Origin: Candidatus Heimdallarchaeota archaeon
GTDB lineage: Archaea; Asgardarchaeota; Heimdallarchaeia; JABLTI01
DNA: 64,000 nt
Assembly (NCBI GenBank): GCA_018238155.1
Contig: JABCTZ010000009.1
Coordinates: forward strand, 68,669-132,668
Direction of reading: 5' to 3'
In this document: positions 41,668 to 45,510 of the stretch, piece by piece
Position numbering within the stretch: position 1 is the first letter of the stretch
Layout of the letters: each line of letters opens with the position of its first letter
Made by a program: the position numbers and the translations under genes
The notes under the pieces: model-generated
What the model saw: the letters and a program-made list of their open reading frames with translations, nothing else
Database searches by the model: none
Told to the model about the DNA's origin: nothing

Positions 41668-41787
41668 TACTAAGCTGAACTCTCTTCATACGAGTCTTCT
41701 TTTCCCTTCATCCTTCTTCTTTTTATTGAAAACAGCATTTACTTTCTTTCACTATTGTTAAATATTAAAAGAAAACAACAAAATGAT

Positions 41788-42058
41788 ATGAGCTTAAAAT
41801 CTAATTGGTTTGAAATAAAGAATCATCTATCCGTGTTCAGAGAACGACTTGATCTTGTTGATCCCCGCTTTTTAACCAAATATACTAATATTTTTTTGCT
41901 TCTCGGTTCAAAAAAGCCATTCTTATTGATACTGGTGCGGGTCTTATCCAATTAGCCCTCTTGTTGAGATGATTATATCAAATATCTTGAATCAATCACT
42001 CCCTTCCTAAGAGGATTGGGAATTGTTAATAAAAAACGCATTTTTAAATCGAAATAAA
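41788..42058 (+). pseudogene. Metallo-beta-lactamase-fold hydrolase remnant
   Basis: MSLKSNWFEIK...RE...TNIFLLLGSK shifts frame in the A-run at 41910-41915 to AILIDTGAG, the MBL beta-strand/IDTG motif. Stop at 41970. The HxHxDH core is absent. Confidence 0.65.
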
Positions 42059-42080
42059 CAAAGATAAATAAAAGTAAAAT

Positions 42081-42108
42081 GAAGGGAAAAGGCTTTTCCT
42101 TTTCCTTC
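42081..42108 (-). terminator. Hairpin downstream of the DENN-Arf-7TM operon
   Basis: Imperfect inverted repeat gaagggaaaagg...ccttttccttc, just past the stop at 42116. Confidence 0.4.
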
Positions 42109-42115
42109 GTAGTAG

Positions 42116-43000
42116 TTACTTTTCAGAAACTTCTACGAATTGTTCACTCTTGTTTGATGAGGCTATTGGTACAATTTGAGGTGTTATCTCTTTGCTAAAT
42201 TGACTTGCAATCCAAGATTTCCCTCGAATTCTTCGCTTAAGCCAATCGGGCATAATCCAACCAAGATAACCCAGAACTACCCCTGATATGCTAAAGAAAA
42301 TTCGAAAATTCTGCAAGACTAATATTGCTATAATACTATCTTTAACAAATGGAAGTGCATTCAAGCTTATAACAAGTGTAGCTGAAGCTAATGATATTAC
42401 TGAAAGTAAGATGAAAGTAAATCCAAATTTAGTGAGTTTCTTTTCAAGTCCTCTTCTGATTCTAATTATTGCAATGATTATTCTAACATGAATCAAACTA
42501 AAAATAGCAATGATTATTCCAAAAGATAAAAGTGGTGTAGGTATGACAGCTGATAATTCTAGTATTTCATCATAATTTGCTACATGAAAGATAGGATTTT
42601 CTATTTGATGAACTATCTCTGAAGTGATAGCTCCAACAACAATGCTAATTAAAATAGATAAGGAAATAACTGTAAGTGATTTTACCAAATCACTGTCTTG
42701 AAGAATGTGCCTATTTGCAAAATAGTATAAGAATAACAGACCTACAATACCGAGTAACAAATATGCTTGTTGAAAGATTCCGGTAATAATTTTCTCATCA
42801 GAATGATTTATCATAATTAGCTTAGCTACTAATTGGAATATTCCAGCTAAATTGATTAAAAAATAACAAATTGCTAAAAGTATTGTTCCTATTGTTCTCT
42901 TTTTAAAGAATTGCCTGAATAATATGATTACAAAAATGAATGAAACAAAGATACTTATGCTCATATTAATAAGATAGTAGATAGTGTATCCATTTGCCAT
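42116..43000 (-). CDS. Seven-transmembrane protein (294 aa) with C-terminal GW.MPDWLKRR amphipathic helix
   Basis: ATG 43000 (MANGYTIYY) lies 4 nt after the Arf stop, with a GGAGG RBS inside the Arf 3' end. Seven hydrophobic segments; basic loops after TM1 and TM5. Confidence 0.75.
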   Translation of the reverse strand: MANGYTIYYLINMSISIFVSFIFVIILFRQFFKKRTIGTILLAICYFLINLAGIFQLVAKLIMINHSDEKIITGIFQQAYLLLGIVGLLFLYYFANRHILQDSDLVKSLTVISLSILISIVVGAITSEIVHQIENPIFHVANYDEILELSAVIPTPLLSFGIIIAIFSLIHVRIIIAIIRIRRGLEKKLTKFGFTFILLSVISLASATLVISLNALPFVKDSIIAILVLQNFRIFFSISGVVLGYLGWIMPDWLKRRIRGKSWIASQFSKEITPQIVPIASSNKSEQFVEVSEK

Positions 43001-43004
43001 TTTT

Positions 43005-43541
43005 CTAGACCTCCTGAATAACTTTGATATACCAATGGAATGCATCATATATGCCGATTCCTTCTTTAGCTGATGTTTCAAAGCAAGCCCATTTCATAGA
43101 GAGGTTTGGATTCGCTAAATCGAATTGCTTAATAAATTCCTCTCGAGCAAGTCTCCCCGGTAAATCTACTTTATTTAGTAAAAGAAGAACAGGAACATCT
43201 TCTCGAATTTGTGTTTTAAGAATTTTATAAAAGATTGTTTTTGCTTCTTCCATTCTAAAAGTGTCTGTGCTATCTACAACGAAAATTAATGCATCGGATT
43301 GCTCATTAATGCTTCCCCACATTGATCGAAAATCTTGTTGCCCTCCGAGGTCGAAAACACTCAATTGCAGTTTAGGGAGATCGATTGTTTCTCGATTTAT
43401 ACCCATTGTTGGTATTGTCTCTTGAAATTCACCATTGATGAGATAATGGATGATAGCTGTTTTTCCAGCACCATCTAATCCGCAAATTGAAAGGTTAACT
43501 CTTTTGGTGCGATTTTTAAAGAGTTTTATGAGAAATGACAT
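43005..43541 (-). CDS. Arf-family (Arf/Sar/Arl-related) small GTPase, 178 aa
   Basis: Amphipathic N-terminus MSFLIKLF, G1 GLDGAGKT, G2 TIPTMG, G3 FDLGGQ, FRSMW, FVVDSTD..R..EA, G4 NKVD, G5 TSAK. ATG 43541 follows AAGGAG. Confidence 0.95.
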   Translation of the reverse strand: MSFLIKLFKNRTKRVNLSICGLDGAGKTAIIHYLINGEFQETIPTMGINRETIDLPKLQLSVFDLGGQQDFRSMWGSINEQSDALIFVVDSTDTFRMEEAKTIFYKILKTQIREDVPVLLLLNKVDLPGRLAREEFIKQFDLANPNLSMKWACFETSAKEGIGIYDAFHWYIKVIQEV

Positions 43542-43554
43542 TTTGTTTACTCCT

Positions 43555-44055
43555 TCATTTCCACATTTCATCTGCAAGAGATTTAGCTGCTTTTTTCTTG
43601 CTATCCTCTTCTTTCTCTTCAGCAATATTCATTTCAATAGTCACTACAGAACTTATTTTGATTTTAATGTGCCCTTTATCTATTCCACTATAGAGATAAG
43701 GAAGAATCTTTTCAATTGTCTCTACAGAGATTGAGTTATTCTTCTTAAGTTCTTCAATTGTTGCTGTGAAAACTTTTCGAACAATGCTTGCATTGTAATC
43801 TGTTTGATCAAATACTGCTACTAAAGAGGCAATGTTGTCTCGTTCGGATTTTCTAGGTATCTTAAATACATACCCTGAGAGCGCACTGTTGCTACTTAGA
43901 GTGGTAGAAATAAAATCTCCTTCTTTTGCTCCGAGAGGCATACTCTTTATTGGAATTTCAAGAAGCATTTCCGGTGGTAAAACTTCGGGATAGGCTTTAA
44001 CCATTTCCAACCCTTTTTTTCCCATTGTTACTAAACAAAGGCTAATCGGTCTCAT
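43555..44055 (-). CDS. Stand-alone uDENN/longin-like domain protein (putative GTPase regulator)
   Basis: CLVTM.K.G.E....YP, KSMPLG...DFI, GYVF, ER...SLVAV match the pattern of uDENN/longin modules (DENND6/DENND11/AVL9 type) as I recall them. Confidence 0.6.
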   Translation of the reverse strand: MRPISLCLVTMGKKGLEMVKAYPEVLPPEMLLEIPIKSMPLGAKEGDFISTTLSSNSALSGYVFKIPRKSERDNIASLVAVFDQTDYNASIVRKVFTATIEELKKNNSISVETIEKILPYLYSGIDKGHIKIKISSVVTIEMNIAEEKEEDSKKKAAKSLADEMWK

Positions 44056-44262
44056 TTTTAATCTTTCTCCATCTATTTACAATAGTCTATTTTAAATTAA
44101 TATGTACTTAATTTTCTGCTTTAAAGCTAATGTTTTCGGCAAAAAAATGTTAAAATTCTCTTTATAAACGAAAATCGATTTATTGATTTGAAACTCATAG
44201 ATTTCTTGTATTAAAATATCTATTTATTCAATTCTAAAATGGTGGAGAATGGATGCAGAGCT

Positions 44263-45033
44263 TTAAGCTACCGGCACTTGGAATGTTTCTTCTGTAACCT
44301 CTGGTGTTGGTCCTACGATGAATCCCGTAAGCATTAAGCTTATACCGATTGCTGCCATTATAAATTCTAATCCATTGAGGCTTTGCGCATTTTTCCAATG
44401 TTCTGCAAGTACATTAGAAAGGATATTAGGTATCAGTGAGCCAATATGAATGCATAAACCCCAGATGAAAAGTTTTAGTGATTTTCTAGTAGTTTTATCT
44501 TCTGTTTGTTTGAATGCTCGTATGAAGAAGGAAATTGTAGATATGACAACAATAAGGCATATTGGATAAAATATTATCGTGAAGAGTGTTGATGTTTGAG
44601 TATCTGCTCCTCCTGTAGGCGCCTGCCTGATTGAGTACCATGGCTCTTCTGAACCCGTTAACCCAAATAAGAATCCCGCAACAATCCCAAGAATAATCAG
44701 ACCAGTAGTAACAATTGGCCATCTTAAAATAAATTGTATTCCATAATTAAATGCTAGCGAGCTTAAGGCTAGAAATACTACTCCCAAAAACAATGTAAAA
44801 GCATAAATTTTAGTTAGGAAGACCATTAGGTTGGGATTTGTTTCGTCAAAAATAAATGCACCAATAGGTAGGAAGAAATAGGCAATTGCAATGAAGAGGA
44901 AACTCATCGAGAATAACCAATTCAGCTTTTCCTTCGGATTTCTTTTTAATACTATGCAAGTAATTATCGTTGAAGAAATAACTGCTAAACCACCTACAAC
45001 CATACTTAGATAATTTACCCAACCAAGAGCCAT
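44263..45033 (-). CDS. Stand-alone seven-transmembrane sensor-like protein (HisKA_7TM-like)
   Basis: Seven hydrophobic helices. VLKRNP...N..F after TM1 and a basic TM5-TM6 loop. No kinase or output domain. Confidence 0.65.
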   Translation of the reverse strand: MALGWVNYLSMVVGGLAVISSTIITCIVLKRNPKEKLNWLFSMSFLFIAIAYFFLPIGAFIFDETNPNLMVFLTKIYAFTLFLGVVFLALSSLAFNYGIQFILRWPIVTTGLIILGIVAGFLFGLTGSEEPWYSIRQAPTGGADTQTSTLFTIIFYPICLIVVISTISFFIRAFKQTEDKTTRKSLKLFIWGLCIHIGSLIPNILSNVLAEHWKNAQSLNGLEFIMAAIGISLMLTGFIVGPTPEVTEETFQVPVA

Positions 45034-45114
45034 TTTGATTCCACCTAAAATAACAGTCTTGTATGGGTTTAAAGAATTTCTGCATAAAAATTCTTTAAAA
45101 TGTTTAATATTTGA

Positions 45115-45510
45115 CTATTTTTCGTCTGGGAGCTCAACTTGGATATTATTAATATAAATATCTCTTCCGCCACTAATTTTCGTCTTACTAGAGTGGCATT
45201 TTGGGCATTCAAAAATATTGGTCATATCAACAACAAAATGATCAACATCCTTTGATTGCTTTTCAATATCTCCACTATATTTGCACTCTTGACATTCAAT
45301 TTGCCCTTTCTGCTCTGAAATTACTACTTCTGCACCATGAGCAAGTGTTCCTTCGCTGGCAATTTCAAAAGCGAAAATTAGTTGCTCTGCATTGAGCATA
45401 GTAAACTCTCCTACAACAAGTTCAATTTTGTTAATTTTGATGGCATGGTGTTTTTTTGCAACATCGGTTACGGTGTCTACTACTCCTACAGCTGTGGAAA
45501 ATTCGTGCAA
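45115..45510 (-). CDS. hypA: Hydrogenase maturation nickel metallochaperone HypA
   Basis: MHE N-terminus (TTG start), VGE, F.FE, CQEC...CPKC, GGRD. Confidence 0.95.
   Translation of the reverse strand: MHEFSTAVGVVDTVTDVAKKHHAIKINKIELVVGEFTMLNAEQLIFAFEIASEGTLAHGAEVVISEQKGQIECQECKYSGDIEKQSKDVDHFVVDMTNIFECPKCHSSKTKISGGRDIYINNIQVELPDEK

Follow-up and report, generated by a model that had tools for sequence, protein, structure and literature searches.

In eukaryotes membrane budding is initiated by Arf GTPases, whose relatives in archaea, the Arf-related (ArfR) or AArf proteins, were reportedly characterised only in 2024-2025. Among eukaryotic longin proteins that act as GTPase-activating proteins (GAPs), NPRL2 supplies an arginine finger to RagA. 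The sole established precedent for such an arginine finger on an Arf-family GTPase is the C9orf72-SMCR8-WDR41 complex, where the finger of the SMCR8 longin domain acts on Arf1 (PMC8213707). A GP motif together with an arginine finger is common to NPRL2, FLCN, SMCR8 and one class of Asgard longins; the conserved loop arginine marks longins of the GAP type, not guanine nucleotide exchange factors (GEFs), and the partner of the Asgard GP-motif longins, ArfR or Rag, was left open (PMC12290439). Native regulators of Asgard Arf proteins have been stated to be unknown, structure searches for eukaryotic Arf GEFs and GAPs having found none, and a Foldseek search gave no credible Asgard counterpart of C9orf72-SMCR8 (Zhu et al., PMC11914678). 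Here we describe a three-gene cassette in a 64,000-nucleotide stretch of DNA from Candidatus Heimdallarchaeota archaeon (assembly GCA_018238155.1, contig JABCTZ010000009.1, positions 68,669 to 132,668), which in its whole length is called the window and to whose positions the coordinates of the features listed below refer. The cassette encodes a small longin-like protein, an ArfR GTPase and a seven-transmembrane (7TM) protein, and it points to a native regulator and a membrane partner of archaeal Arf GTPases. The reading towards which we lean is that it specifies one membrane-associated switch, composed of the ArfR, a longin GAP regulator and a 7TM membrane partner. The three genes are the following.

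44055..43558, TGA at 43557-43555, minus strand: longin-like gene P0001, 166 amino acids (aa), from open reading frame and translation
ATG at 43541, coding to 43008, TAG at 43007-43005, minus strand: Arf-related GTPase gene P0004, 178 aa, from the Pfam Arf match
43000..42119, TAA at 42118-42116, minus strand: 7TM gene P0002, 294 aa, from open reading frame, translation and AlphaFold2 (AF2) model

Conservation marks the three genes as a functional unit. In the window they are separated by 13 nucleotides (nt) between longin and GTPase and by 4 nt between the GTPase TAG and the 7TM ATG, which bears out the head-to-tail packing on the minus strand described in a first-pass annotation of this DNA. 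The genome to which the window belongs (4.08 Mb, 90.7% complete) contains the longin-ArfR-7TM cassette in six complete copies, besides one longin-7TM pair, and each of its seven genes of the 7TM family adjoins a longin of the P0001 family. In a set of 83 genomes from its class, strong matches to the longin fall in two families, in 9 of 11 and 8 of 31 genomes. We surveyed 27 fetched longin loci from 17 related genomes: 20 have the order longin, ArfR, 7TM on one strand (one with a broken GTPase frame), six are longin-7TM pairs and one is cut by a contig end. The 22 triads analysed share this gene order, with gaps of 11-33 nt and -4 to 18 nt, and this constancy of order and spacing argues that the packing did not arise by chance. 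This is further supported by the pairwise distance matrices of the three proteins, which correlate over the 22 triads with r 0.84-0.91, a value reached by none of 2000 permutations. A fortuitous adjacency, or mere co-transcription of unrelated genes, is hardly credible in view of the six identically ordered paralogous copies in one genome and the 20 of 27 loci elsewhere, the co-divergence of the proteins and the attachment of every 7TM gene in the window genome to a longin. The recurrent order and the co-divergence also sustain the earlier proposal that the three genes act as one module.

The cassette has duplicated and diverged as a unit, since the distances correlate, the nearest paralogue pairs within the window genome are identical for longin, ArfR and 7TM, and every paralogue in the longin tree is matched by orthologues elsewhere in the genus. 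The 7TM protein diverges fastest of the three. A public assembly of Heimdallarchaeota (locus L061) likewise holds an intact triad. At one related locus (L030:2026-2844, genome G084) the 7TM gene following the longin falls into three successive open frames, which is probably a pseudogene or an assembly error.

The GTPase matches Pfam Arf (PF00025) with E 1.2e-41 and 142.6 bits at a cut-off of 22.3. Its closest solved relative is 8oun_A, the GerdArfR1 of Vargova et al. (E 1.1e-35), with eukaryotic Arl1 next (3.9e-31). As the top solved relative is GerdArfR1, the profile and solved-structure searches class P0004 as an ArfR GTPase, nearer to archaeal ArfR than to other GTPase groups, and with the described Asgard ArfR/AArf proteins (GerdArfR1, HodArfR1) it shares the Arf hallmarks including the putative N-terminal amphipathic helix. 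All motifs listed in the first-pass annotation for an Arf-type GTPase can be read from the sequence: GLDGAGKT at 21-28, PTMG at 44-47, DLGGQ with the catalytic glutamine at 64-68, FRSMW at 71-75, NKVD at 123-126 and SAK at 157-159. Invariant in the GTPases of the 22 triads are A25-T28 of the P-loop, T45 of switch I, D64, G67 and the catalytic Gln68. The N terminus is consistent with the amphipathic helix without Gly2 named there: the protein begins MSFLIKLF and has no Gly2, the pattern MSFLxxLF is followed by basic residues, and the hydrophobic moment is moderate at 0.27. M1, F3, L7 and F8 of this segment are invariant in the same 22 proteins.

The small protein has no family match in Pfam or NCBIfam, and its fold was obtained from an AF2 model built with 34 homologues (predicted local distance difference test, pLDDT, 86.6). 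The model has the order ββαβββαα with the five-stranded sheet of a longin, plus two further strands, with strands at 5-12 and 15-22, a helix at 28-38, strands at 48-52, 58-66 and 74-82, and helices at 89-105 and 111-127. In a Foldseek search NPRL2/Npr2 of GATOR1/SEAC ranks first (E 3e-8, TM-score 0.71), and DENND1A/B appear with E 1.6e-3. Alignment with VIA-align places residues 1-155 of the model on residues 5-168 of the chain holding the NPRL2 longin domain, with Z 16.5 and a root mean square deviation of 2.7 over 151 residues. Lower scores are obtained for the Lokiarchaeal longin 8yqg (Z 12.7), FLCN (12.2), Ykt6 (10.7), DENND1A/B (10.0-10.2, DENND1B 10.2) and entries of C9orf72/SMCR8 (9.6-9.8), while the longins of AP sigma/mu, Sec22 and Ykt6 lie at Z 9-11 and generic longins at 9-12. 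In a neighbouring ESM Atlas cluster, Pfam NPR2 is found on 19% of members. As modelled, P0001 is a single-domain longin protein that resembles NPRL2. The first-pass annotation had named it uDENN/longin; the longin part stands by AF2, Foldseek and VIA-align, whereas the uDENN part gives way to NPRL2, which is far closer. Residues 148-166 form a low-confidence linker followed by a conserved tail, ..DDxWK, with a near-invariant W165.

The loop between β4 and β5 carries an arginine, R72, that is invariant in the 34 close homologues and the 22 triad longins and is retained by 97 of the 113 members of the superfamily. An arginine in the loop before the fifth strand is also what P0001 has in common with NPRL2 of GATOR1 (NPRL2-NPRL3-DEPDC5) and Npr2 of SEACIT, in addition to NPRL2 being its top match; NPRL2 acts on a small GTPase working at a membrane, and P0001 is encoded beside such a GTPase. 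In human NPRL2, Gly20-Pro21, Pro28 and Arg78 are spaced almost as G15, P23 and R72 are in P0001. P0001 has no sequence-level similarity to NPRL2 and no NPRL2-specific C-terminal domain, and it has neither NPRL3 nor DEPDC5 as a partner; the GTPase is Arf-related here and RagA there, and G-L takes the place of GP. The C9orf72-SMCR8-WDR41 complex is closer in its target, as its longin arginine finger acts on an Arf-family GTPase, but it is a heterodimer of large longin-DENN proteins with a WD40 subunit, whereas P0001 is a lone small domain. One Asgard Arf has very low intrinsic GTPase activity in vitro (PMC11914678), so that a GAP would be needed, and the ArfR of the cassette keeps its catalytic glutamine. 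With NPRL2 as the best match (Z 16.5 versus 10.2) and R72 conserved, a GAP role is likelier than a GEF role and, by analogy with these systems, P0001 is a probable arginine-finger GAP of the neighbouring ArfR, acting via R72.

The first-pass annotation had seen the small protein differently, as a uDENN-like exchange factor or adaptor beside a 7TM protein that resembles G-protein-coupled receptors (GPCRs) and recruits or activates the ArfR, prefiguring GPCR/G-protein or Arf/DENN coupling. The longin complexes of DENN, Mon1-Ccz1 and TRAPP are indeed GEFs, DENND1A/B are among the structural matches (Z 10.0-10.2, Foldseek E 1.6e-3), and two of 36 relatives have a faint Pfam uDENN match (E 0.12). 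P0001 itself gives no uDENN or DENN match in Pfam at E up to 1; it is one domain of 166 aa with neither cDENN nor dDENN, NPRL2 fits far better than DENND1B, and the conserved loop arginine is a mark of the GAP type and not of GEFs (PMC12290439). We regard this explanation as unlikely, and the GEF or adaptor role assigned to the uDENN protein was not borne out in that form.

The structural matches also bear on a further possibility, namely that the longin is an effector or adaptor of GTP-bound ArfR, like the SRX longin on SR-beta or the AP sigma/mu subunits, with the 7TM protein as cargo or receptor. Arf family members recruit longin-containing coats, the longins of AP sigma/mu, Sec22 and Ykt6 match at Z 9-11, the GTPase additionally matches Pfam SRPRB (E 6e-10), and the persistence of longin and 7TM together without a GTPase, described below, would fit a stable longin-7TM pair. 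Adaptor-type longins nevertheless match clearly less well than NPRL2, an adaptor role leaves unexplained an arginine that is invariant in the close family and lies in an exposed loop, and no components of coats or of the signal recognition particle are encoded nearby. This places the effector explanation among the decidedly unlikely ones.

For the third protein no sequence family was found in Pfam or NCBIfam. In its AF2 model (pLDDT 84) seven transmembrane (TM) helices are followed by a helix 8 that spans residues 252-269 and begins at PDWLKRRI, and a beta hairpin sits on the outer side between TM4 and TM5. The N terminus lies outside and the C terminus inside, with 20 lysine and arginine residues in the loops assigned to the inside and three in the outer ones, and the seven helices, basic cytoplasmic loops and helix 8 anticipated by the first-pass annotation are thereby confirmed in the model. 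Conservation is confined to one side: in two alignments all 24 positions conserved to at least 80% are cytoplasmic, 19 of them in loops and five in inner TM halves, while the outer half and the bundle core have no conserved residue. The conserved cytoplasmic motifs are KKRTxGT after TM1, YxFANRHILxD after TM3 and GWIMPDWLKRRIRGK at TM7/helix 8, and conserved charged residues in the inner halves are R173 (TM5) and R233 (TM7). At residues 273-294 a low-confidence linker leads to a conserved tail, ..PIASS..xEVSE; this tail and that of P0001 (148-166) might be short docking motifs.

Structural comparison of the 7TM model with solved structures by Foldseek gave E of about 3e-3 and TM-scores of 0.4-0.5. 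In VIA-align GPCRs reach Z 13-16.1 and a microbial rhodopsin 13.2, a range that is common for helical bundles. The match to GPCRs at Z 13-16 and the presence of helix 8 speak for the GPCR-like part of the proposal discussed above. Against it, no GPCR family is recognised by sequence in 21 members, and in the ESM Atlas the HisKA_7TM modules (PF16927) are nearest, with TM-scores of 0.64-0.68 when normalised by query and up to 0.76 when normalised by target; they fit the model at least as well as GPCRs and, by TM-score, better (0.66-0.68 versus 0.60 for the GPCR cluster). The modules matched are bacterial and archaeal sensor modules of kinases, cyclases and HD proteins, and PF16927 is present on 10% of the members of the feature-space neighbour cluster of P0002. 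P0002 resembles GPCRs and HisKA_7TM proteins in having seven helices in the N-out/C-in orientation, a helix 8 and a cytoplasmic face that is conserved while the outer part varies; the protein has NRH at the end of TM3 and neither DRY nor NPxxY. HisKA_7TM proteins also couple a 7TM part to a cytoplasmic output, which in the cassette is encoded separately. P0002 itself has no family match and no fused kinase or cyclase, and the GTPase of the cassette is a small Arf, not a G-alpha with its helical domain.

The 7TM protein might instead be a transporter or channel that is regulated by the GTPase cycle, or that reports its substrate load to the GTPase. This overlaps with the switch reading and differs from it solely in the role of the 7TM protein, its model being lysosomal transporters that recruit longin GAPs. 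The 7TM transporter PQLC2 recruits C9orf72-SMCR8-WDR41, and here the inner halves of TM5 and TM7 hold the conserved charged residues R173 and R233; genes for transporters of the major facilitator superfamily adjoin the triad at L061. In addition, every eukaryotic GAP of the longin type functions in nutrient sensing at the membrane of the lysosome (PMC12290439). The protein belongs to no transporter family by sequence, however, no transporter fold is among the best structural matches, and the outer half and the core of the bundle are devoid of conserved residues, so that we rate the likelihood of a transporter or channel about as low as that of an effector longin.

Some loci lack the GTPase gene. 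In the window genome one longin and 7TM gene have no GTPase between them, the match ends lying 129 nt apart (genome G000, contig C21:5514-6928, locus L007). At four loci in related genomes (L029, L031, L038 and L039) the longin equally adjoins the 7TM gene without a GTPase, and the longins of such pairs cluster together in the tree. In Gerdarchaeota assembly GCA_019056785.1 (L058:4502-5062) the ArfR gene lies in three frames between an intact longin and an intact 7TM gene and has a degenerate P-loop KAVKT, DLGGE and SKIN, and the same locus is found in L059 and L060; L058 is a cassette caught losing its GTPase. Since longin-7TM pairs outlast the loss of the GTPase, these loci suggest that longin and 7TM are the core pair of the cassette. 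Three unlinked ArfR paralogues are encoded outside the cassettes of the window genome and could act in trans on cassettes that have no GTPase.

In the membrane-associated switch that we favour, the ArfR would be the switch itself, its GTP form binding the membrane via the N-terminal amphipathic helix. The longin would be its cognate regulator, most likely a GAP that inserts Arg72 beside the catalytic Gln68 in the manner of NPRL2 for RagA and SMCR8 for Arf1. The conserved cytoplasmic face of the 7TM protein may dock the longin, the ArfR or both and so place or gate the GTPase cycle at the membrane, while its variable outer half may sense or bind something specific to each paralogue. Gene order, spacing, duplication and co-divergence as a unit, and conserved residues with their positions are observed, as are the folds at the level of models; we infer that the proteins bind one another, that the longin has GAP activity and in which direction the signal flows. 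A complex prediction with longin, GTPase and GTP, and with the 7TM protein as partner, counts neither for nor against binding by the rule of the tool: it scored 0.54, dropped to 0.00 on replacing the 7TM protein and reached 0.60 when an unrelated protein took the place of the GTPase.

Several results weigh against this reading. In the β1-β2 loop, P0001 and its close relatives read G15-L16 and not GP, so that the GP motif of GAP-type longins is absent from a subfamily that has lost the proline. Profiles of the longin family find no NPRL2, FLCN, SMCR8 or DENN match in the PDB, and in Pfam the family yields, in two of 36 relatives, a faint C9orf72-like match (E 0.029) besides the uDENN match (E 0.12) already mentioned. 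A search of 1.84 billion representatives with the longin profile returned only 110 proteins, all short and none recognisably eukaryotic, and fused "Rosetta stone" forms of the longin are absent among longer proteins, which is weak evidence by the search's own standard. Known longin GAPs are heterodimers of larger longin-DENN or NPRL proteins, whereas P0001 is a lone domain of 166 aa with no cDENN, dDENN or NPRL2-specific part, and the window cassette has no second longin gene that could supply a heterodimer partner. Longin domains more commonly have GEF or adaptor roles than GAP roles, and the presumed equivalence of R72 with Arg78 of NPRL2 rests on the loop position, the fitting linear offset and the residue spacing given above. 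As regards the membrane protein, 21 members of the 7TM family have no 7TM, GPCR or HisKA_7TM match in Pfam at E up to 1, and the likeness of the P0002 model to HisKA_7TM and GPCRs is one of fold, generic for helical bundles. Finally, the GTPase-less cassettes keep longin and 7TM with no GTPase encoded in cis.

A more far-reaching version, which we consider doubtful, is a full receptor-GTPase-GAP cycle in which each 7TM paralogue would sense a ligand of its own or the state of the membrane and, by way of its conserved cytoplasmic face, load or recruit its cognate ArfR in a GEF-like manner, and the longin would switch the ArfR off by means of an arginine finger. Such a cycle would give each cell six private channels in parallel and constitute a native Asgard Arf circuit. 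It would be an analogue, possibly a relative, of the combination of lysosomal sensor, longin GAP and Arf or Rag, or of GPCR, G-alpha and RGS (regulator of G-protein signalling).

Published Asgard longins, both the GP-motif longins (Traffic 2025, PMC12290439) and the NPRL2-like families among the Asgard clusters of orthologous genes (asCOGs) of Liu et al. (bioRxiv 2020), belong to the same superfamily as P0001 and are described alone, whereas a partner of the window longin is indicated by the conserved adjacency. The operon reported by Liu et al. is a different one, with a LAMTOR1-like protein, a Rab-like GTPase and a DENN protein. Among the distant relatives of P0001, which also have the same arginine, 43 of 63 show G/N-P in the β1-β2 loop, the proline having been lost in the P0001 subfamily. 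We examined 14 fetched loci of such distant longins in two other Asgard families (L044-L055 among them). In nine of them the longin gene is followed by two paralogous membrane proteins of about 215 aa with 5-8 hydrophobic segments, and in seven of these nine a GTPase of about 300 aa is encoded just past the two membrane-protein genes (e.g. L044:3962-6909); three other loci have such a GTPase and then the longin gene directly. Three of the large GTPases were scanned and match Pfam Arf with E 1e-32 to 1e-36, and they have in addition an unassigned C-terminal extension of about 125 aa. The repeated occurrence of Arf GTPases and membrane proteins at these distant GP-motif longin loci links the longin superfamily to Arf-family GTPases and polytopic membrane proteins well past the lineage of the window. 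The membrane proteins of about 215 aa were considered as homologues of the 7TM family and set aside, hhalign giving probabilities of 57% and 0.5%.

The genes of the window cassette are accompanied by the following signals.

43550..43555, minus strand: AAGGAG ribosome-binding site of the GTPase gene, its first A common to the longin TGA, with an 8-nt spacer to the ATG at 43541
43010..43014, minus strand: GGAGG ribosome-binding site of the 7TM gene, contained in the final codons of the GTPase gene
42105..42085, minus strand: terminator-like hairpin with an 8-bp stem, a 5-nt loop and a T-rich tail, 10 nt past the 7TM stop
44056..44262, minus strand: AT-rich intergenic region of 207 nt upstream of the longin gene, presumed promoter region

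Both ribosome-binding sites overlap the preceding gene, as had been noted earlier, the first by one base of the TGA and the second by lying in GTPase codons. The hairpin that was thought to close the unit is present and is the sole terminator-like site in 41700-45200. As shuffled sequence gives a mean of 1.6 such sites, one site does not exceed expectation and the position of the hairpin is the sole argument for a terminator; archaeal termination relies mainly on T tracts. A scan of the region upstream of the longin gene, which took sigma-70-type sites only and is uninformative for an archaeon, yielded no archaeal promoter, so that 44056..44262 is a promoter region by presumption.

Upstream of this region, 207 nt from the longin gene, lies a gene for a multi-TM protein of 256 aa (P0003, 44263-45033, minus strand) with sub-threshold matches to SHR3_chaperone and the MAB_1171c family. 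It was considered as a fourth member of the cassette and rejected: hhalign against the 7TM family gives 43% probability, and since its homologues are not near other triads, P0003 falls outside the conserved cassette.

A prokaryotic small GTPase encoded beside a small GAP regulator of the Roadblock/longin superfamily is known from MglA-MglB. MglB is a Roadblock dimer that is not known to carry an arginine finger, MglA is not Arf-like and, unlike the present cassette, that system is not known to include a 7TM partner. Cassettes of a small GTPase with a longin or Roadblock regulator are thus known; the present one is a variant in which the GTPase is of the Arf type, the longin resembles NPRL2 and a 7TM protein joins them. 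The longin-ArfR-7TM cassette was not found described in full-text literature searches, which were not exhaustive, and the ArfR/AArf papers, as searched, make no mention of neighbours, operons or transmembrane partners.

The earlier interpretation of the locus as a membrane GTPase module is right in outline and probably wrong on the role of the small protein. By placing a clade of longins beside Arf-family GTPases, in a unit that also includes a 7TM membrane protein, the cassette offers a concrete and testable answer to the question of the Asgard longin partner. If the 7TM protein gates the cycle it would be, as far as a non-exhaustive literature search can tell, the first known case of a 7TM receptor coupled to a small GTPase in a prokaryote. 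Natural specificity controls for assays of binding and activity are available in the six diverged cassettes of a genome, and the cassette makes native Asgard Arf regulation directly testable. If the longin is a GAP of the ArfR, eukaryotes would be younger than the mechanism by which the longin GAPs GATOR1, folliculin and C9orf72-SMCR8 work.

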